Part shown: positions 5,901 to 32,577 of the stretch, piece after piece
Layout: each line of letters begins with the position of its first letter
Position numbering within the stretch: the first letter of the stretch is position 1
Origin: Candidatus Iainarchaeum sp.
GTDB lineage: Archaea > Iainarchaeota > Iainarchaeia > Iainarchaeales > JAZDEL01
Assembly: GCA_043808785.1 (NCBI GenBank)
Contig: JAZDEL010000009.1
Span: 1,680 to 65,679, forward strand
Direction: 5' to 3'
DNA length: 64,000 nucleotides
Made by a program: the position numbers and the translations under genes
The notes under the pieces: generated by a model
The model's input: the letters and a program-made list of their open reading frames with translations, nothing else
Told to the model about the DNA's origin: nothing
The model's database searches: none

Positions 5901-5979
5901 ATTCGTGCTGCGTTTCGCCACCTTTTTATATATCCTGCGATATTGGTTATTGTGCACGCTTTGTGTTGAGGTGGCTTGA

Positions 5980-6393
5980 ATGGCGGGTTCTGAAAGCATA
6001 GAAATCAGAGACGAATCTAACCACCCTAGTATTGCCGGCAATGAGGGCATACTCGTTGCATGGAAGGGCAGGGGGTATCTGGGCTGCATTAGGTGGAAAG
6101 AAAAGGCAAACTGGAAAGGGGACAAGACCTGGTGGCTTGTGCTGAACGGGGGAAAGGAAGTTTCAACGCAATTGCTAAGGGCGGTTCACGAGCATGCGAA
6201 AGAAAAGGGCATCAAATATATGGCATTTGAATTACCCTGCCCCGAACTGAGGGGGTTCCTCAGGGGGGCGGGAATGAAGGGCGGATCCAAAGAAAGGGTG
6301 CTTTACAAGAAATTCTCGGTTGCGTCTGTGCGTTTTGAGCCCCCCGTGCGGAAAAGTTTATTTAGCGCATTCAAATTCAAAAAGCCAAAGTAA
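5980..6393 (+). CDS. Small GNAT-like acetyltransferase-fold protein (putative)
   Basis: 137 aa. SD-like GAGGTGG before the ATG. The segment LLRAVHEHAKEKGIKYMAFELP resembles the GNAT core. Weak assignment. Confidence 0.4.
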   Translation: MAGSESIEIRDESNHPSIAGNEGILVAWKGRGYLGCIRWKEKANWKGDKTWWLVLNGGKEVSTQLLRAVHEHAKEKGIKYMAFELPCPELRGFLRGAGMKGGSKERVLYKKFSVASVRFEPPVRKSLFSAFKFKKPK

Positions 6394-6432: not shown

Positions 6433-9024
6433 ATGCAAGCCCTTACGGACAAGCAGGTAAAGGCGAAGTTCAGGCCGAAATTCGTGAAAGAATACAAGAA
6501 GTTTTACCCCGTGCAGGCTCTGCACTCACTGGGCTTCGAGAGGCGCGAGTGCATGAAATGCCAGCGCGAATTCTGGAGCACGGATGCGGAAAGGCAGGCC
6601 TGCGGCGAGCCCGCGTGCGAGGGCGGATTTGGTTTTATCGGGAAGACGCCCGCGAAAAAGAAACTGAATTACATAGAGGCGTGGGAGGAGTTCGCGCGCG
6701 AGTTCAAAAAAATGGGCTACCTTGCAGTGCCGCGCAAGCCAGTGGTTGCGCGCTGGCGCAACGACGTGTACTGGACGGGCGCCTCGGTGTACGGGTTCCA
6801 GCCGTACGTTGTGAGCGGCGAAATAGAGCCGCCGAGCAACGCGGTTATAATTCCACAACTCAGTTTGCGTTTCAATGATGTGGATAACGTTGGCATAACA
6901 GGCTCGCACTACTCATGCTTCGACATGCTCGGCCAGCTGCGCTTCGAAAAGAAGGGGGATTACGCGCCCGGCGATTATTTGAAAGATTACCTCTCATGGC
7001 TCGAGAAAGGGATGGGAATCCCGCGCAACGCGCTCGTTCTGCACGAGGATTCCTGGGCGGGAGGGGGAACATTCGGCCCGAGCATGGAATTCTTCAGCGC
7101 AGGGCTTGAACTCGGCAACCAGGTTTACATGCAGTATTCCGCTAACGCGGACGGCGGTTACAGGGAACTCGACATAAAAGTTTTGGATATGGGGCAGGGG
7201 CATGAGAGAATACCGTGGTTCACGCACGGCAAGAGTACAAGCTACGAAACCACTTTTCCGGACGTCGTGCACTATCTGCGGAAAGTTTCAGACCTGCGCG
7301 CCGACGAGGAACTGTTGCAAAAATTCCTGCCCTATTCCGCGTACCTGAATGTTGACGAGGTTGAAAATATAGCGCGTACATGGGGCTTTGTTGCGGGGAA
7401 AATAGGCATTTCTGTTGAGGAACTGCGCGCGCGGCTTATGCCCATGCGCGACCTTTACGCGATTGCGGAGCATTCAAGGGCGGTTCTTGCCGCGCTGAAC
7501 GACGGCGCGATGTTCAGCAACACGGGGGGAGGGTATAACATACGCACGCTTGCAAGGCGCATGTTCTCCCTTGCTGAGGAGCGGCGCTGGGATGTGGATT
7601 ATTCAAAACTCCTCGAACTGCACGCGCACTTCCTGCGCAACCTTTACCCGGAACTCGAGGAAAACCTGAAGGATGTGAATGAAATGCTCGCCTATGAACT
7701 GCAGAAGCACGGGCAGACGAGGTTCAAATCCAAGCAGGTTATCGAGGGGCTGATTGCGAGGAAGGAAAAAATCACGCCCGCGAAACTCGCGGAACTGTAC
7801 GATTCGCAGGGAATAACGCCCGAACTCCTGCAGGGCTATGCAAAGGGCACGGAACTCGAGGTAAGCGTGCCCGACAATTTCTTCGCGCTTGTTGCGGAAA
7901 GGCACGCGGAAAAAAAGGAAGGTGCCGGCGAAAGTGATTCGGAGGACAAAAACAAAAAAACAAAAAAACCCGAAATCGCGGGCAAGGTTTTGGAGGGTTT
8001 GCCGGAAACCAAAAGGATGTATTACGAGGATGCCTCGCTCCTCGAATTCGATGCTAATGTCCTTTACGCGCAGGGAAATGTTGTTGTTCTGGACCGCTCG
8101 GCATTTTACCCAACTTCGGGGGGGCAGGAGCACGACACGGGGGAAATAATGGGGGAGCGCGTGATTGATGTTGTTGCGCAGGGGGAGATGGTTTTGCACA
8201 TCCTGCAGAACGGCAAAACCAAAATAAAAACGAAACAGCGGGTTAAGTGCGTGGTTGATGCCGCGCGCAGGAGGCAGTTAACACAGCACCACGACGGCAC
8301 GCATGTGCTGAATTATGCCTGCCGCGAGGTTTTGGGCGCGCACTGCTGGCAGCACGGCTCTTATGTTGGCTTGGATAAGGCGAGGTTCGATGTCACGCAT
8401 TACAGGCCGATAGATGATGCCGAGGCAAAAAAAATCGAGGAGGTGTGCAGCCGCATAATAAAGGAGCGCCTGCCGATAAAGCACGAGTTCCTTGCGCGCA
8501 ATTTAGCGGAGGAAAAATACGGCATGCGCATTTACCAGGGAGGATACGTTCCGGGAAAGGTGCTGCGCATCCTCAGCATTGCGGATTTGGATATCGAGGC
8601 ATGCGGCGGCACGCACGCAAAGAACACCGCCGAAATCGGGCAGTTCCGCATTCTCAACACCGCAAAAATCCAGGACGGGGTTATACGCATAACTTTCGTT
8701 TGCGGGAAAGCCGCGGAGAAGAGCGGGAGCGAGGCCGAAGGATTGCTTGCGGAAACCGCCGCAATTTTGGGCATCGAGCCTGCCGCTGTTCCCTCCGCAT
8801 GCGAAAACCTTTTCGCGGCATGGAAAAGGGCGAGGAAACTTGTGAAGGGCAAAAACACGGGAGCGCTTAGGGCGCTCGCGCTTCCGACGCCCGAAAAAAG
8901 GCATGGTTTGGGCACGGCAGAACTGCTGCAGGCAGCCGCGCTCGCTTTCAGCACGCAGCCCGAGCACGTGCCGAAAACCGCAAAAAGGTTTTTGGGCGAC
9001 CTGCGAAAGTGGAAGGCGGGGTGA
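6433..9024 (+). CDS. alaS: Alanyl-tRNA synthetase, archaeal type
   Basis: 863 aa. The N-terminus MQALTDKQVKAKFRPKFVKEYKKFYP...ECMKCQREFWS is typical of archaeal AlaRS. The C-terminal editing/HxxxH region (HDGTHVLNYACREVLG...CGGTHAKNT) is present. A TATA-like ATTATATAT lies 30 nt upstream. Confidence 0.95.
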   Translation: MQALTDKQVKAKFRPKFVKEYKKFYPVQALHSLGFERRECMKCQREFWSTDAERQACGEPACEGGFGFIGKTPAKKKLNYIEAWEEFAREFKKMGYLAVPRKPVVARWRNDVYWTGASVYGFQPYVVSGEIEPPSNAVIIPQLSLRFNDVDNVGITGSHYSCFDMLGQLRFEKKGDYAPGDYLKDYLSWLEKGMGIPRNALVLHEDSWAGGGTFGPSMEFFSAGLELGNQVYMQYSANADGGYRELDIKVLDMGQGHERIPWFTHGKSTSYETTFPDVVHYLRKVSDLRADEELLQKFLPYSAYLNVDEVENIARTWGFVAGKIGISVEELRARLMPMRDLYAIAEHSRAVLAALNDGAMFSNTGGGYNIRTLARRMFSLAEERRWDVDYSKLLELHAHFLRNLYPELEENLKDVNEMLAYELQKHGQTRFKSKQVIEGLIARKEKITPAKLAELYDSQGITPELLQGYAKGTELEVSVPDNFFALVAERHAEKKEGAGESDSEDKNKKTKKPEIAGKVLEGLPETKRMYYEDASLLEFDANVLYAQGNVVVLDRSAFYPTSGGQEHDTGEIMGERVIDVVAQGEMVLHILQNGKTKIKTKQRVKCVVDAARRRQLTQHHDGTHVLNYACREVLGAHCWQHGSYVGLDKARFDVTHYRPIDDAEAKKIEEVCSRIIKERLPIKHEFLARNLAEEKYGMRIYQGGYVPGKVLRILSIADLDIEACGGTHAKNTAEIGQFRILNTAKIQDGVIRITFVCGKAAEKSGSEAEGLLAETAAILGIEPAAVPSACENLFAAWKRARKLVKGKNTGALRALALPTPEKRHGLGTAELLQAAALAFSTQPEHVPKTAKRFLGDLRKWKAG

Positions 9025-9721: not shown

Positions 9722-10873
9722 ATGCCGCATTTTAACGTGCAGAAAGCAAGGCTGGTTCTCGGGGACGGTTCCTCTTTTTCGGGCATTTCGTTCGGTGCAA
9801 ATGCTTCTTCCGCGGGCGAGGTTGTATTCAACACGGGCATGTGCGGATATGAGGATTCGCTTTCAGACCCCTCATATTCGGGGCAGATACTGGTTTTCAC
9901 ATACCCCTTGATAGGTAACTACGGGGTAAGGGCGGAGGCACAGGGAAAGTTTGAAATGCGCCTTGCGGGAAAGGGGAACGGCGGCTTCCCGCCATACAAG
10001 CTCGACAGGAAATTCTTCATAAATAATTTCGAGTCCGAGCGCGTGCAGGCTGCGGGGGTTATAGTGGCGTCATATTCTGGCGCCTTTTCGCACCACTCCG
10101 CTGAAAAATCCCTCGGCGCGTGGCTTGAACAGCACGGCGTTCCCGCGATAACCGGCATAGACACGCGCGCGCTGACAAAAAGATTGCGCGAGTGCGGAAC
10201 GATGCCGGGAAAAATTGAAATAGAGGGCGTAAGTGATGTGCGGATATGTGACCCGAATAAAACCAACCTTGTCGCGGGGGTCGGCATAAAGGAGCCAGTG
10301 GTTTACGAGAGCGGGAAGCGCAGCCCCGCGCATGTTGTTGTCGCGGACTGCGGCGTTAAGAACAACATCCTGCGCATGCTGCTTGCCAGAAATCTCAAAG
10401 TTACGCGCGTGCCGTGGAATTACGATTTCAATTCAATCGAATGCGATGCAATCGTGCTCTCGAACGGTCCGGGCGACCCAAAGATGCTTAATGAAACAAT
10501 CTCTCACGTGCGCGCCGCGCTTGCAAAGGAAACCCCGATTTTCGGAATCTGCCTCGGCAACCAGCTGCTTGCGCTTGCAGCGGGCGCGGACACATATAAA
10601 CTCAAATACGGCCACAGGTCGCAGAACCAGCCCGTACTTTTGCGGGGCACAAAGAAATGCTTCATAACCTCCCAGAACCACGGTTACGCGGTTAATGAAA
10701 AAACCCTGCCCGCGGGCTGGGAATCATGGTTCACAAATCTGAATGACGGAACGAACGAGGGCATAAGGCACGCCAAAAAGCCCTTCATGTCGGTTCAGTT
10801 CCATCCCGAAGCAACTCCCGGGCCTGTGGATACGGCGTTCCTTTTCGGCGAATTTTTGGGGGCTTTGAAATGA
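9722..10873 (+). CDS. carA: Carbamoyl-phosphate synthase small (glutaminase) subunit
   Basis: 383 aa. Class-I glutamine amidotransferase catalytic Cys motif GICLGNQLL. Conserved FHPE near the C-terminus. Confidence 0.95.
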   Translation: MPHFNVQKARLVLGDGSSFSGISFGANASSAGEVVFNTGMCGYEDSLSDPSYSGQILVFTYPLIGNYGVRAEAQGKFEMRLAGKGNGGFPPYKLDRKFFINNFESERVQAAGVIVASYSGAFSHHSAEKSLGAWLEQHGVPAITGIDTRALTKRLRECGTMPGKIEIEGVSDVRICDPNKTNLVAGVGIKEPVVYESGKRSPAHVVVADCGVKNNILRMLLARNLKVTRVPWNYDFNSIECDAIVLSNGPGDPKMLNETISHVRAALAKETPIFGICLGNQLLALAAGADTYKLKYGHRSQNQPVLLRGTKKCFITSQNHGYAVNEKTLPAGWESWFTNLNDGTNEGIRHAKKPFMSVQFHPEATPGPVDTAFLFGEFLGALK

Positions 10874-12102
10874 GTTTCGCACAGGAAATGTACCCTCTCC
10901 CGAAACTATTTAAGCGCGGGCTGAACTTAATATTCATGGTGCCGCATTTGGATGCCGTAAAATCCGTTCATTTCTGGGATTTGCCCGAAACAACGAGGTT
11001 CGTTTTGGACCGAAATTTTTGTGCCGAACTTTTTGATAAGGCGGCCGGGGGAAGCCTCCGCTCGCTGGCTTCAAAATTGGGCGTTTCTTACCCGCGCGCC
11101 TGCCATCTGAGGCGGCCTTTGTATTCAATCCCTAAAGGCGTCCTGATGTGCCTGATAATTTTGAGTGCCATTGAAAAGGCGGATGTCGAAAATAAAATTA
11201 TTGAAATAAAAACCCGCTCAGGAGGCGGTTCCAAAGTTAAATTTCCCATTAACGGCAACAGGGCAATAGCCTCGCTTGTAGGGCACGTTTTCGGTGATGG
11301 GTGCATTTATTCGAAAAAACGGCAGTTCGAATACGGCAATACCAAACCCGAACTTCTGGAATCCGTAATGAAATTGGTCGGCGATGTTTTGTGTGCGGAG
11401 CCAATAAGGATTGCCGAAACAAGGCTTGTTTATTCGGCAATTGTGGGGGATATTTTGCTGTTGTTTGGCGCACCGAAAGCGCCTAAACTGAATTCAGATT
11501 CTCCCGTGCCGGAATGGATTATGGCCGGCCCGAATGAATTCAAGGCGGCATTTCTCGGGGCTTTGTTTGACGATGACGGTTCAGTTATGTATTCGGAAAA
11601 ATATGCCGCAAAAGGCATTAACCTGTACCAAACAAGGCACGAAAAAAATCTGGATTGCTTGATGCGCCTGATGAGCCAGGTAAAAACTATGCTGTCTGAT
11701 TTCGGCATACTTGCGGGCAAGCCTTCCGTAAGCAGGAGTTATTCCAAGCCGGATGGCGCCCATATTGTCGCATATCTGAACGTTACCGACATTGAAAGCA
11801 TGCGGAAATTTAATGAATCGATAGGGTTTGCCCACATTGAAAAAAAAGTGAAATTGGAAAAGATTCTCTCCAGAAAAATAATTTACAGCAAAACCCGCGA
11901 AGCCGTGCTGTCGAAAGAAATCCTCGGATTTTTGGCGGTGCGCGGGGCATCAACCGCAAAAGTTTCGGAGGCCCTGTCACTCGATAAATCCAAGGCTTTA
12001 AAGAAACTTCTCAGGCTTGAATCAAGAGGGCTTGTCAGGAGGGCGGGAAGGGCCGCCCCGAACAGGTCTTTTATCTGGCAAACGAGGGAGGTGACATGCT
12101 GA
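10870..12102 (+). CDS. Free-standing double-motif LAGLIDADG homing-endonuclease-like protein with a C-terminal wHTH-like tail
   Basis: Two LAGLIDADG motifs (LVGHVFGDGCIY and LGALFDDDGSV) about 100 aa apart. The ATG overlaps the carA stop (ATGA). The C-terminus ...LRLESRGLVRRAG is wHTH-like. Confidence 0.8.
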   Translation: MSFAQEMYPLPKLFKRGLNLIFMVPHLDAVKSVHFWDLPETTRFVLDRNFCAELFDKAAGGSLRSLASKLGVSYPRACHLRRPLYSIPKGVLMCLIILSAIEKADVENKIIEIKTRSGGGSKVKFPINGNRAIASLVGHVFGDGCIYSKKRQFEYGNTKPELLESVMKLVGDVLCAEPIRIAETRLVYSAIVGDILLLFGAPKAPKLNSDSPVPEWIMAGPNEFKAAFLGALFDDDGSVMYSEKYAAKGINLYQTRHEKNLDCLMRLMSQVKTMLSDFGILAGKPSVSRSYSKPDGAHIVAYLNVTDIESMRKFNESIGFAHIEKKVKLEKILSRKIIYSKTREAVLSKEILGFLAVRGASTAKVSEALSLDKSKALKKLLRLESRGLVRRAGRAAPNRSFIWQTREVTC

Positions 12103-12103
12103 T

Positions 12104-15100
12104 TTGAAAACAAAAAACCACCCAAAGCCGAAGAAGGTTCTCGTGCTGGGTTCGGGCGGGCTGCAGATAGGGCAGGCAGGCGAAAGCAACTTGTGGTTTC
12201 ATTGAAACTATAATTGCCGCCAATTCGACTACTCAGGCAGCCAGGCGATAAAGGCGCTGCGCGAGGAGGGCATAAGCACCGTGCTCATCAACCCCAACAT
12301 CGCCACAGTGCAGACAGGGAAGGGGTTCGCAGATAAGGTTTATTTCCTCCCCCTTACGCCCGAATTTGTCGAAAGGGTGATTGCTCGGGAGAAGCCTGGC
12401 GGCATACTACTCTCCTTCGGCGGGCAAACCGCATTGAACTGCGGCCTCGAACTCGAACGCAGGGGCGTTCTGCGCAGGCACGGGGTAAGGGTATTAGGCA
12501 CGCCTGTGAAGGCAATTGCACTCACGGAGGACAGGGAAAAATTCAACAGCGAACTCGGGAGGATAGGGGTTAAGGTGCCGAGCAGCAGCGCTGTAACCAC
12601 TGTGCCCTCGGCCCTTAGCGCGGCGGAAAAATTGGGCTACCCCGTGATTGTTCGCGCCGCATTCGCATTGGGGGGCAGGGGTTCGGGTTTTGCGAAAAAC
12701 AGGGAGGAATTAAGGGGCATCGCGGGGCGCGCGTTCACGCACTCGAAGCAGATTCTTGTGGAGGAATGCCTGAAGGGCTGGAAGGAAATCGAATACGAGG
12801 TTGTGAGGGATGTGCACGGCAACTGCATAACAGTTTGCAACATGGAGAACTTCGACCCTTTGGGAATACATACGGGGGAGAGCATTGTTGTTGCTCCCTC
12901 GCAGACGCTGAACAACAGCGAATACCACATGCTGCGTGAAATCTCGATACGCACGATAAGGCATTTCGGAATAATCGGGGAATGCAACATACAGTTCGCT
13001 TTGGACCCGAAAAGCGAGGAATACAGGGTTATCGAGGTTAACGCGCGCCTCTCGCGCTCGAGCGCGCTCGCTTCAAAAGCCACTGGTTATCCGCTCGCGT
13101 TCGTTGCCGCAAAACTCGCGCTCGGCTATTCCCTTGCCGAACTTGAAAACAAGGTCACAAGGACAACGAAGGCATGCTTCGAGCCCGCGCTGGATTATAT
13201 TGTCGTGAAAATTCCCCGCTGGGATTTGCAGAAGTTCAGGCGCGTTTCAAGGCGCATAGGCACCGAGATGAAGAGCATGGGGGAAGTGATGGCGATAGGC
13301 AGGACTTTCGAGGAGGCGATGCAAAAAGCCATAAGGATGCTTAACACAGGCATGAACGGCCTTGTGTGCAACAGCGTGCATTTCCTGAAACTGCGCAGGA
13401 GCATTGCCCACCCCACTGATAAGAGGATTTTCGCGGTTATAGAGTCTCTTGAGAAGGGTTACGGCATCGACAGGATACACGCGCTGAGCGGCATTGACAG
13501 ATGGTTCCTCCAGCGCCTTGAGAATGTGGTTGCGCTGAAGAAGGAAATGGTTAAGGGAAACTGGACAGCGCAGGCAATTCCCGCCGAAGTGCTGCTGCGC
13601 TGCAAACAGCAGGGGTTTTCGGATAAGCAGATTGCAATTTTGCTCCGTGGCGGCGGGGATGCGGGGGCGGGCGCAGACGGCGCGAAAATGCGCGGCTCGC
13701 CGGGCGGGGCGCAGGAGGCCGCGGTGCGCGCGAGAAGGCACGCCCTCGGCCTGCATCCTTTCGCAAGGCAGATAGACACGCTTGCAGCGGAATTCCCGGC
13801 GCGCACGAATTACCTTTACCTCACTTACAACGCAACCGAGGATGATGTAAAATTCCCGCGCGGGAAGAAGGCGCTTGTGCTCGGCAGCGGCGCATACAGC
13901 ATAGGCTCCAGCGTCGAGTTCGACTGGTGCTGTGTCGGCGCTGTTAACGCGCTCAAGCGCGCAGGGTTCGGCACGATAATGCTCAACTGCAACCCTGAAA
14001 CCGTCTCAACGGATTATGATGTGTGCGACAGGCTCTATTTCGAGGAAATCAGCCTTGAGGCAGTTCTTGAAATTTACGGAAAGGAAAAGCCGCGGGGGGT
14101 TGTTGTTTCAGCAGGCGGGCAGATACCTAACGGCCTTGTGCCGAAGCTCGCGCCCGCGGGAGTAAAAATTTTCGGAACGCCCGCGGAAAGCATAGACCGC
14201 GCGGAGGATAGGCATAAGTTTTCCGCCCTTCTCGATTCCCTTGGGATTGCCCAGCCGGAATGGCGCCAACTCACAACGGAAAAGCAGGCGCTTGAATTTG
14301 CAGCGCGCGTTAACTATCCGGTGCTTGTAAGGCCGAGTTACGTGCTCAGCGGTTCCGCAATGCGCGTTGCTTTCTCCCCCGCGGAACTCTCCTCATACCT
14401 GCGGGAAGCCACTTCGGTTTCTGCCGAGTACCCTGTTGTGATAAGCAAGTTCATCCTCGGCGCAAGGGAGGTTGAAATTGATGCTGTTGCCTCGAAGGGG
14501 GAAATGGCGGTTTGGGCGATAACCGAGCACGTGGAGAACGCGGGCGTTCACTCAGGGGATGCCACTATGGTTCTCCCTCCCCAGCGCACAAACCTCGAAA
14601 CCGTGCGCAGGATAAAGCATATTGCGAGGCGGCTTGCCTCCTCGCTCCGCATTTCAGGGCCTTTCAATATGCAGTTCCTTGCAAAGGACAACAATGTGCT
14701 CGTGATAGAGATGAACCTGCGCGCCTCGCGCTCGTTCCCGTTTGTTTCGAAGGTTTCCGGCACGGACTTTATCGATGCCGCGGTTTCGGCAATGCTCGGC
14801 GCGAAAGCGAAGCACGCAAATTCCTCCTCACTCGGGCCTGGCAAGGCGCCGCACACCAACTCATCCTCACTCGAGCTCGACCATGTGGGCGTGAAAGTTC
14901 CGCAGTTCTCCTTCTCAAGGCTGCACGGCGCAGACCCTAAACTCGGGGTTGAAATGGCTTCCACGGGAGAAGTTGCGTGCATAGGCCCTGATTTGGAGGA
15001 TGCGTTCCTCAAGGCAATGCTTTCAGCGGGCTACTCGATGCCCAAAAAGAACATGCTTGTCAGCATTTCAGGGGACAGGAACAGGGAAAAACTGCTTGAC

Positions 15101-15451
15101 GCGGTGAAGGCAGCGGCAGTTGCAATGCGCCTTAACATATTCGCGACGGAAAATACCGCGCGCTTCCTGCGCGCGAACGGCGTGAAATGCAGGCGCCTGT
15201 TCAAGGCTCACGAAAACAAGAAGCCGAATGTGCTCGGCTACCTGCACAGCGGCAGGCTTGATTTCGCGATATGCGTCCCCGACCCGCAGGTTGCCGCGGA
15301 AATGGGCGGCGCATACCTCCTCAGGCGCGCTGCCGTCGATTATTCAGTCCCCCTTATAACTGATGCCGAGGTCGCAAGGCAGTTCCTGAAGGCGATTTCC
15401 GCAAAGAAGCCCGAGGAGCTTGACATAAGGCCGTGGCAGGAGTATTTCTGA
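12104..15451 (+). CDS. carB: Carbamoyl-phosphate synthase large subunit, interrupted by a 39-nt insertion (12185-12223) carrying an in-frame TGA
   Basis: TTG 12104 follows GGGAGGTGA. The N-terminal exon KTKNHPKPKKVLVLGSGGLQIGQAGE ends at 12184. After the insertion the frame resumes at 12224 with FDYSGSQAIKALREEG... and continues as 12281..15451 in the ORF track. The two ATP-grasp halves and an MGS-like C-terminus are present. Confidence 0.85.
12185..12223 (+). other. 39-nt insertion in carB with an in-frame UGA; folds as helix / 3-nt bulge / 4-bp helix / hairpin, so a candidate BHB-type mRNA mini-intron
   Basis: Removing AGCAACUUGUGGUUUCAUUGAAACUAUAAUUGCCGCCAA restores the universal GQAxEFDYSG motif. 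Exonic GGCG pairs with CGCC at the insertion's 3' end. An AAA bulge spans the 5' junction. GCAA/UUGC forms a 4-bp helix, followed by a 10-bp stem with a 3-nt loop. Confidence 0.5.
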
Positions 15452-32488: not shown

Positions 32489-32577
32489 GGACCCGTAGCC
32501 TAGCCTGGACAGGGCATCTGGCTTCTACCTCCCCGGAAGTTACCAGAAGGTCGAGGGTTCAAATCCCTCCGGGTCCA
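32489..32577 (+). tRNA. tRNA-Arg(TCT) with a 14-nt intron after position 37
   Basis: Acceptor GGACCCG/CGGGUCC. D arm GCCU..GGGC. Anticodon stem UCUGG / CCAGA interrupted by CCUCCCCGGAAGUU. T arm GAGGG-UUCAAAU-CCCUC. Discriminator A. No encoded CCA. Confidence 0.75.

Follow-up and report, generated by a model that had tools for sequence, protein, structure and literature searches.

Archaeal rRNA genes contain introns of the bulge-helix-bulge (BHB) type that encode the LAGLIDADG endonucleases I-DmoI, I-PorI and I-ApeI, and the bacterial protein WhiA is a conserved housekeeping regulator without catalytic acidic residues. In pre-mRNAs, the documented substrates of the archaeal splicing endonuclease are cbf5, which carries a BHB intron in Crenarchaeota (Watanabe 2002; Yokobori 2009, PMC2738675), and one Haloferax transcript (PMC2738675, PMC7714728); papers of 2020 and 2025 cite cbf5 alone, to which the former adds one Haloferax mRNA. 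Phage group I introns are known to take part in collaborative homing, in which a free-standing homing endonuclease gene (HEG) is paired with an intron that lacks an open reading frame (ORF) (Zeng, Bonocora and Shub 2009, reviewed in PMC3984707; also PMC2790892). Here we analyze a window of 64,000 nucleotides (nt) from Candidatus Iainarchaeum sp. (contig JAZDEL010000009.1; positions refer to the whole of this stretch), in which a free-standing gene with two LAGLIDADG motifs, hereafter the homing endonuclease (HE) gene, lies between carA and carB, and in which a 39-nt insert interrupts the first codons of carB. Comparison with related loci suggests that the HE is a resident, functional free-standing HEG that settled in the carAB operon ahead of carB and whose own target is probably masked by the insert, in the manner of collaborative homing. 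On sequence evidence, we regard this reading as moderately favored.

As in phage collaborative homing, a free-standing HEG stands here beside a conserved host gene with an ORF-less intron in a conserved coding stretch, and occupied and empty alleles coexist. As opposed to the phage systems, the carB intron would be a protein-spliced archaeal BHB intron of 17-42 nt where phages have a self-splicing group I ribozyme, the nuclease is a LAGLIDADG protein with helix-turn-helix (HTH) and winged HTH (wHTH) additions rather than a GIY-YIG or HNH enzyme, the host is a cellular archaeon and the equation of target and intron site is put forward as a proposal. With I-DmoI, I-PorI and I-ApeI the system shares the superfamily of double-motif monomeric enzymes, the archaeal host and the EndA-dependent BHB intron type, but the HE ORF lies 82 nt outside the intron, the host gene codes for a protein and the intron is too small to hold an ORF. 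Unlike the case of cbf5, the interrupted genes are carB, psmA and a minD-like gene of DPANN and Nitrosopumilaceae, several introns cluster within the first ~30 codons, and there is a physical linkage to an HEG that has not been reported for cbf5. The intein endonucleases PI-SceI and TliVMA/PhoVMA have the same two-LAGLIDADG-domain fold (Foldseek E=1e-8 to 1e-5) and are reflected in the NCBIfam matches of the HE, which nonetheless lacks a Hint domain, a Cys/Ser/Thr at +1 and a terminal His-Asn, and possesses its own start and stop. WhiA, finally, combines a LAGLIDADG scaffold with a C-terminal HTH (8dy9_I, 3hyj), whereas the HE family retains its acidic residues, can do without the wHTH and is patchily distributed. 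Full-text literature searches turned up no account of carB, psmA or minD-like genes with BHB introns, nor of protein-gene introns coupled to LAGLIDADG genes in DPANN or in archaea. The components (LAGLIDADG enzyme, BHB intron and free-standing HEG) are known, the novelty residing in how they are combined, in the host genes and in the lineages.

Co-occurrence of the endonuclease gene and the carB insert

The genes carA, HE and carB were located by tblastn in the DNA around homologues of the HE. In every locus with at least 33% HE identity, the HE gene lies directly 5' of carB, which amounts to 22 distinct loci (identified here by L numbers) labelled Woesearchaeota, Nanoarchaeota, Micrarchaeota, Diapherotrites ('ainarchaeum') or archaeon. 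The HE ORF is intact in 21 of these 22 loci. The next gene upstream is usually carA, with three genes intervening in one locus and a small ORF in others; since the HE gene stays at carB where other genes separate it from carA, the linkage is to the 5' end of carB and not to carA. The initial annotation would have been refuted by relatives carrying the same gene far from carAB in a clear housekeeping role, but close relatives are always found beside carB. Across related loci the HE stop codon overlaps or abuts the carB start, and most of these loci have a string resembling GGAGGTG at an equivalent position within the final HE codons.

All 22 loci with the HE gene also have an insert at the same codon junction of carB, GE|FD(Y/F)SG, shifted by 1 nt in L022. 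The HE ORF of the window ends 82 nt 5' of this insert, with exon 1 (12104-12184) in between, and the order is the same in all related loci; the ORF thus lies outside the carB intron and is not an intron-encoded ORF. It is this adjacency, together with the strict co-occurrence, that forms the basis for considering HE and intron a collaborative-homing pair. A shared history of the HE gene and the carB insertion had been suspected from the sequence of the window, and their joint presence in the 22 loci bears this out; the accompanying notion of a degenerated intron or homing site does not stand, the insert having the appearance of an intact, covarying BHB intron. In three NCBI records examined (L001, L002 and L005), no carB gene is annotated across the ~3-kb carB stretch, which fits a pseudogene call caused by the interruption.

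Two loci depart from this layout. In L018 (~5909-6002) and L021 (~5924-6020) the HE frame has no stop of its own, continuing in frame through carB exon 1 and ending inside the intron, and unless carB has an internal start, splicing would there join the two frames, HE and CarB, into one.

The carB insert as a BHB intron

The carB inserts range from 17 to 42 nt; many are of a length not divisible by three, and stop codons occur in most. In the window, the insert translates as SNLWFH*NYNCRQ and the reading frame is the same on both sides of the 39 nt. The BHB core (12179-12224) is made up of a helix between GGCG (12179-82) and CGCC (12218-21), a 5' bulge AAA (12183-85) and a 3' bulge AAT (12222-24), and the intron hairpin opens with GCAA (12186-89) paired to TTGC (12214-17). 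RNAfold predicts a uniform BHB shape for the window, for the 21 further loci with the HE gene and for seven loci without it. In the 22 loci with the HE gene, the 4-bp helix joins the end of exon 1 (GGCG or GCCG) to the 3' end of the insert (CGCC, CGCT, CGTC or CGGC); the first bulge contains two exon bases and one intron base, and the second two intron bases and the first base of exon 2. EndA is known to cleave BHB motifs between bulge residues 2 and 3 (PMC2738675), and this cut rule restores the ..GQAGE-FDYSG.. frame in every carB locus, including those with inserts of 17, 20, 22 and 23 nt and L022.

Covariation was counted over 20 distinct carB insert sequences, which were aligned by their exon junctions alone and not fitted to the structure. 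Standard pairs occupy 96.9% of cells, as against 64.6% in shuffles (none of the 500 shuffles reaches the observed value), compensatory double changes occur in 8/8 BHB pairs (4.8 in shuffles) and the covariation score is 0.866, compared to 0.21 in shuffles. When the partner is slid by 1-3 columns as a control, 32-51% of cells are paired. Compensation extends to the central helix, where the change from a Gly codon (GGC) to an Ala codon (GCC) goes with a change of the intron 3' end from CGCC to CGGC. The minimum free energy fold of the window intron alone has z=-1.6, and 13/200 shuffles fold as well; this single-sequence fold is marginal, and hence it is the comparison between loci that carries the intron claim. 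The carB insert thus appears to be an intact BHB intron, the splicing of which we infer. Recoding of the in-frame TGA under an alternative genetic code was rejected as an explanation, because relatives have inserts whose length is not divisible by three, as well as TAA and TAG stops.

A second BHB intron of 31 nt is present in carB exon 1 of L005 (~7340-7375) and L013 (~6170-6205), 24 nt 5' of the GE|FD intron. It splits the Leu codon that follows GSGA, and the cut rule, applied partly by hand, yields GSGALKIG. The window also encodes a tRNA (32489-32577, forward strand; Rfam tRNA, 60.3 bits) that has an insertion of ~16 nt in the anticodon loop and that ARAGORN could not type; the presence of an intron-containing tRNA implies that the genome needs the BHB splicing machinery. 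At L001/L010 (Woesearchaeota, JACPMT010000040.1), carB has, not far past the intron, an in-frame TAG (..IQTS*GMADK..), and its frame is broken around codons 484-556. The HE is intact beside this damaged gene, which may represent either a decaying carB or an assembly error.

Family, motifs and predicted fold of the protein

Pfam family PF14528 (LAGLIDADG_3) matches HE residues 223-319 (E=4.8e-11; 43.2 bits for a cut-off of 22.5), and the NCBIfam matches correspond to the endonuclease portions of intein-containing RtcB and GyrA models. The two LAGLIDADG motifs reported in the initial annotation (LVGHVFGDGCIY and LGALFDDDGSV) are therefore not fortuitous, and Asp143 and Asp236 can be placed within them. 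A protein search retrieved 33 homologues of the HE, an identical protein (P0001) being on record from a Candidatus Diapherotrites metagenome-assembled genome (MAG), where it is annotated as 'LAGLIDADG family homing endonuclease'. Among 1.84 billion cluster representatives searched, 664 match the HE at E<=1e-3 and 164 at E<=1e-10, and nearly all the matches are 300-450 aa long, the size of a free-standing protein. Residues D143/G144 of motif 1 (GHVFGDG) and F233/D235/G237/S238 of motif 2 (FDDDGS) are invariant across 23 aligned homologues, and position 236 of motif 2 is D or E in nearly all of them. Acidic residues are thus kept in both motifs throughout this set and, given the invariance of the motif residues, the expected catalytic-metal ligands appear to be retained down to 24% identity.

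The AlphaFold2 (AF2) model computed on the homologue alignment (pLDDT 89.2, pTM 0.81) comprises two helix-plus-strand domains, so that the protein is predicted to have the two LAGLIDADG-fold domains of monomeric homing endonucleases. The best Foldseek matches in the PDB are intein-associated LAGLIDADG endonucleases (7qsu, E=1.4e-8; PI-SceI entries, ~1e-6), the matches to TliVMA and PI-SceI endonuclease domains having E=1e-8 to 1e-6, and further matches include WhiA (8dy9_I, 4.7e-6; 3hyj, 1.4e-4) and the bI3 maturase (E=1.3e-4). The extensions noted at both ends of the protein fared differently. At the C-terminus, the wHTH-like character is substantiated by the AF2 model and by Foldseek matches to ZitR/MarR winged helices, along with weak Pfam matches to TrmB, IclR and MarR_2; a PDB sequence search with the HE gave weak wHTH matches alone, an alignment to HosA among them. 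At the N-terminus, residues 1-27 are predicted to be disordered, are unconserved and lie outside the enzyme fold, and the conserved part is an HTH domain (aa ~31-110) with a weak DUF2089-HTH match at aa 59-75, which is presumed to be an accessory DNA-binding domain. In a Pfam scan of the family, LAGLIDADG_3 is found in 22 of 23 members and N-terminal HTH_3 or HTH_26 in three to four, with the C-terminal domains matching HTH_24, AsnC, MarR and TrmB. The C-terminal wHTH is missing in L002, L014, L015, L017-L019, L021, L022, L024 and L056, that is, in about half of the carB-linked relatives. We conclude that the ORF between carA and carB encodes a monomeric, two-domain LAGLIDADG protein of the homing endonuclease family, with two extra putative DNA-binding modules.

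Introns without an endonuclease gene and empty sites

Among the matches listed by a scan of metagenome DNA with the pattern GGCGARN{15,45}TTYGAYTWYTCNGG (at least 120), 113 are due to chance and seven are real carB introns, and the scan gives no frequencies. At least seven carB loci have a BHB intron at the GE|FD site with carA followed directly by carB and no HE gene on the contig examined. These are L147, L182, L189, L202 and L204, from Nitrosopumilaceae, together with L119 and L134, and their introns measure 21-26 nt. The CarA protein of L147, a contig belonging to a group of five that resemble one another, shares 84-87% identity with proteins of Nitrosopumilus and Nitrosarchaeum. In the complete genome of Nitrosopumilus sp. 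K4 (L209, CP067007.1) carB is uninterrupted, and the carB intron is hence polymorphic within the Nitrosopumilaceae. A +1 frameshift was also contemplated for carB in this family and dropped, K4 having a TTG start where the intron-bearing contigs have CTG. Among the scan matches listed there is no DPANN allele with the intron and without the HE gene.

The results of a protein search with the CarB N-terminus, most of them short, incomplete proteins from a wide range of phyla, could not be sorted by intron status; L207 and L208 came from this search. Both the HE gene and the intron are absent from L207 (a Diapherotrites MAG) and L208 (another archaeon), which thus constitute empty sites. L207 falls inside the occupied clade in neighbor-joining trees (no bootstrap) of CarA and of the CarB N-terminus. 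Its carB has a GTG start that overlaps the carA stop (GTGA), the very position taken by the HE ATG in the window. The HE leader (aa 1-27) begins where carB does at this empty site and is probably what is left of the original start of carB translation.

Insertion remnants, selection and inheritance

Pieces of an older carB 5' end persist upstream of the HE in several family members. In L056, TGCGCAAGGTGCTTGTCATCGGCAGCGGT lies 5' of the HE frame, is identical to the exon 1 of the same locus at 25/29 nt (z=10.4) and encodes ..RKVLVIGSG in frame with the HE. Further remnants are KPKKVLVLG 5' of the HE in L014 (z=4.8), KKILVLGSGSLK / MTKNKLKKILVLGSGSLKK* just 5' of the HE in L023, and the opening MSIPKKVLLLGSGA.. 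of protein P0024. The homology of the remnants ends within ~15 nt around the GSGA-LK codons. The idea that the leader is a decayed CarB N-terminus at the protein level was abandoned, since the alignments are not significant (z<=2.2) and it is the short DNA or peptide remnants in L056, L014, L023 and P0024 alone that are supported. The simplest reading of these sequences is that a cassette consisting of leader, HE gene and a new carB start with its first codons was inserted in frame into carB, and that the old start left upstream drives HE translation. The disordered 27-residue N-terminus of the HE in the window, which starts on the carA stop, fits such an insertion.

The ratio of nonsynonymous to synonymous substitution rates (dN/dS) is 0.07-0.15 for the HE core in five close pairs, and these codon-level estimates show the HE to be under purifying selection; for the leader in relatives the ratio is 0.53-0.96. 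A decayed copy is found at L023 (4749-5660; 303 aa from stop to stop), where an in-frame deletion has removed the entire second LAGLIDADG domain.

In L002, L014 and L015, nucleotide identity is 0.84-0.94 from the cassette through exon 1 and the intron into exon 2 (its first ~150 nt), compared to ~0.75 in the flanks, and both the Nei-Gojobori proportion of synonymous differences (pS) and sliding identity in these loci hint at a cassette younger than its flanks. Divergence at four-fold sites, computed with saturation controls, gives a mixed picture, being lower in the HE than in the flanks for two pairs alone, L005-L013 (0.38 vs 0.61) and L002-L014 (0.43 vs 0.58). A recent horizontal spread of the HE cassette is possible.

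L002 (~6000-6300), L014 and L015 also have a leader of ~90 codons without protein constraint (dN/dS 0.57-0.84) that is more alike in nucleotides (pS and its nonsynonymous counterpart, pN, ~0.2-0.3) than the flanking genes, and a translated motif, T-G-H/Q-x5-Y-L, recurs at the leader start in many loci. The leader of these three loci could be a conserved RNA or DNA element, or its similarity could reflect recent shared ancestry.

A wider family at the 5' ends of conserved genes

Homologues with 25-31% identity to the HE lie directly 5' of conserved genes other than carB, namely psmA, encoding the proteasome alpha subunit (eight loci), alaS (four loci), topA (four loci) and a minD/parA-like ATPase gene (two loci). 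BHB introns occur near the 5' end in seven of the eight psmA loci and in one of the two minD-like loci (L032, with none in L025), and none is visible within the first ~50 codons of alaS or topA. In psmA, the introns are 31-37 nt long and are present in one to several copies per locus, at three or more sites within the first ~30 codons (L027, L028, L030, L031, L036, L037 and L038); no psmA BHB intron was found in L033. A program that removes BHB candidates by the EndA cut rule restores the conserved psmA peptide in seven loci after excision of one or two introns in each, the calls being doubtful for two introns (L037, second; L038, first), and a further site in L028 (MPEY|MGY) was identified by hand. 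In L032 (~5930-5960), a BHB intron of 30 nt splits the P-loop codons GKGGVG|KTT of the minD-like gene directly 3' of the HE homologue, and the cut rule again restores the peptide.

The HE is best explained as a member of a family that specializes in the conserved 5' coding regions of housekeeping genes. The mini-introns lie within a few dozen nt of the HE, in codons that are invariable at the protein level, which suggests that they break the recognition sequence and leave the protein intact. More generally, one may envisage a DPANN system in which free-standing LAGLIDADG HEGs colonize the 5' ends of carB, psmA, minD-like, alaS and topA genes, and tiny BHB introns, found also in Nitrosopumilaceae and removed by the tRNA-splicing machinery, accumulate in the target codons as immunity devices or landing pads; this extended scheme is tentative, and we would hold it slightly short of an even chance.

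Distant family members were also found in bacteria of the candidate phyla radiation (CPR; Berkelbacteria, Saccharibacteria and Minisyncoccia), among the loci L070, L077, L079, L081, L058, L067, L071, L073, L076 and L085. Other members of this set lie inside ORFs of 1000-1750 aa and are probably intein-borne.

A masked-target model and its alternatives

In the model that we favor, the HE would be translated from the original carB start position overlapping the carA stop, and its 3' end would carry the ribosome-binding site and the start of a rebuilt carB 5' end. The enzyme would recognize the conserved, uninterrupted DNA coding for the CarB N-terminus (..LGSGALKIGQAGE|FDYSG..), and the 39-nt BHB mini-intron would break that target in its own genome, rendering the resident allele immune. 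Removal of the intron from the mRNA by the tRNA-splicing endonuclease and ligase would allow CarB to be made, the predicted junction in the spliced message being ...CAGGCAGGCGAA|TTCGACTACTCAGGC... An allele devoid of both intron and HE gene would be cut, and repair from the occupied allele would copy HE gene, exon 1 and intron together. The HTH and wHTH domains could extend the footprint of the HE as far as the GE|FD intron. In lineages free of the HE gene, such as the Nitrosopumilaceae, the introns may be resistance alleles or leftovers.

Several considerations weigh against this model. That the enzyme cuts DNA, which site it targets, that the intron gives immunity and that the RNA is spliced are all steps that we infer. 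The carB intron exists without the HE gene on the Nitrosopumilaceae contigs, and is in this respect independent of the endonuclease. The break points of the carB remnants (after LG, GSG, GSGA and GSGSLK) are 20-35 nt 5' of the GE|FD intron, so that the intron may be peripheral to the recognition site or lie beyond it. Family members at alaS, topA and the minD-like gene of L025 have no visible adjacent intron. In other pairs of loci, four-fold sites have diverged in the HE at least as much as in the flanks. Finally, pairwise identities of HE and CarB are strongly correlated (Spearman 0.82; CarA vs CarB, 0.87), and this co-divergence indicates that the HE has been inherited mostly with the operon over long times, a pattern that fits domestication as well as residence.

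Long retention with the operon is indeed what would be expected of a domesticated LAGLIDADG-wHTH regulator of carAB, akin to WhiA and kept because of its usefulness to the host (e.g. in pyrimidine or arginine control). The strong purifying selection on the HE, its HTH and winged-helix domains, the presence of WhiA among the Foldseek matches and the translationally coupled position of the gene within the operon all agree with such a role. Nonetheless, the family as a whole keeps both catalytic acidic residues, about half of the members linked to carB have no wHTH, and the gene is patchily distributed, being absent from relatives with a normal carAB (L207, L208). Remnants of target duplication and a decayed copy point in the same direction, and the presence of homologues 5' of unrelated genes (psmA, alaS, topA and minD-like) fits target-specific selfish genes and not a regulator of carAB. 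The initial annotation had left the choice between a domesticated or selfish endonuclease and a maturase; on these grounds it is the selfish endonuclease that is favored, and we judge a domesticated regulator to be unlikely, though not far-fetched.

The occurrence of the intron together with the HE gene in 22/22 carB loci would also suit a maturase-like splicing cofactor, or an RNA-binding protein that folds or presents the carB BHB intron, and LAGLIDADG maturases do exist, the bI3 maturase being among the structural matches. EndA, however, cuts BHB introns alone in known cases (PMC2738675, PMC7714728), the members at alaS, topA and the L025 minD-like gene have no visible adjacent intron, and the catalytic Asp residues are conserved. 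The same intron also occurs in the five Nitrosopumilaceae contigs, and in two further contigs, with the HE gene not present on the contigs examined, and a maturase role appears improbable. Even less credit can be given to the notion of an inactive, decaying relic of an intron- or intein-encoded endonuclease, the position of which would merely reflect the vertical descent of a neutral insertion. The co-divergence of the HE with its flanks, the degenerate copy of L023 and the damaged carB of L001/L010 could be read in this way, but a neutral sequence would not show dN/dS values of 0.07-0.15, nor catalytic and structural residues that stay invariant at 33-50% identity. An intact ORF is kept in 21/22 loci, and there is neither a Hint domain nor an intron structure flanking the ORF. 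Compared to the functional, selfish HEG with a masked target proposed here, the picture drawn from the window alone was right as to the gene and its linkage, but it missed the conserved DPANN-wide family and left the options hedged.

Our analysis thus documents BHB mini-introns, as predicted from sequence comparison, in the most conserved 5' codons of carB, psmA and a minD-like gene in DPANN (and, for carB, also in Nitrosopumilaceae), and a physical coupling of these introns in DPANN to one free-standing LAGLIDADG family. If the masked-target model holds, collaborative homing, so far described for phages, would have its first archaeal and cellular example here, and the interruption would account for the habit of annotation pipelines to truncate these essential genes or class them as pseudogenes. 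Selection for disrupting an endonuclease target would provide a route for the origin of protein-gene introns, and an arms race between HE and target would give a selective reason for introns to arise and cluster. Archaeal protein-gene introns would, moreover, be far commoner than the one or two known cases suggest, and the family would supply new long-target nucleases with modular HTH and wHTH extensions.

Organization of the carAB locus

The features of the carAB region are listed in Table 1. The ATG of the HE gene overlaps the TGA stop of carA (ATGA at 10870-10873), and its own TGA stop (12100-12102) is followed by a 1-nt gap and by the TTG (12104) that opens the carB frame, so that the coordinates given for the 410-aa ORF in the initial annotation hold at both ends. 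Its description as a free-standing gene devoid of intein features is likewise upheld. The HE has an ORF to itself (M-S-F... to ...E-V-T-C-stop), with a complete gene on either side, no Hint or intein domain is present among the Pfam matches of the protein, and intein junction residues are lacking. The gene is not inside an RNA gene and sits, as had been claimed, inside the carAB operon.

Table 1. Features of the carAB region, with positions in the window
Feature	Position	Strand	Evidence and remarks
carA (carbamoyl-phosphate synthase small subunit)	9722..10873	+	Pfam CPSase_sm_chain E=2.6e-46, GATase E=1.1e-54
Free-standing double-motif LAGLIDADG homing endonuclease (HE) gene (putative)	10870..12102	+	410 aa, stop included
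HE N-terminal leader, aa 1-27	10870..10950	+	pLDDT <50; homology begins at ~aa 31
HE N-terminal helical HTH domain, aa ~31-110	10960..11199	+	AF2 helices 48-59, 63-70, 74-81, 89-99
LAGLIDADG motif 1, LVGHVFGDGCIY, aa 136-147	11275..11310	+	Asp143 = 11296-11298
LAGLIDADG motif 2, LGALFDDDGSV, aa 229-239	11554..11586	+	Asp236 (before Gly237) = 11575-11577
HE C-terminal MarR/TrmB-like wHTH, aa ~341-405	11890..12084	+	AF2 helices (H) and strands (E): H341-357, H362-368, H373-385, E389-396, E400-405
Shine-Dalgarno-like GGGAGGTGA for carB, inside last HE codons	12086..12094	+	Sequence; putative function
carB exon 1, TTG start, ending ..KPKKVLVLGSGGLQIGQAGE	12104..12184	+	Translation; matches CarB N-terminus in all relatives
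carB BHB mini-intron, 39 nt, in-frame TGA	12185..12223	+	Fold, covariation; predicted splicing
carB exon 2, opening FDYSGSQAIKAL.., through stop	12224..15451	+	ORF; Pfam CPSase_L_D2 E=8.9e-109

Two minor features of these operons may be added. In two Woesearchaeota loci, a very hydrophobic ORF of ~100 aa with no Pfam match lies between carA and the HE leader (L001, 5558-5875; L002, 5699-6004). The window itself contains an intact alaS (6433-9024, forward strand; 863 aa) with no HE gene in front of it, alaS being a gene that hosts distant members of the family in other DPANN genomes.

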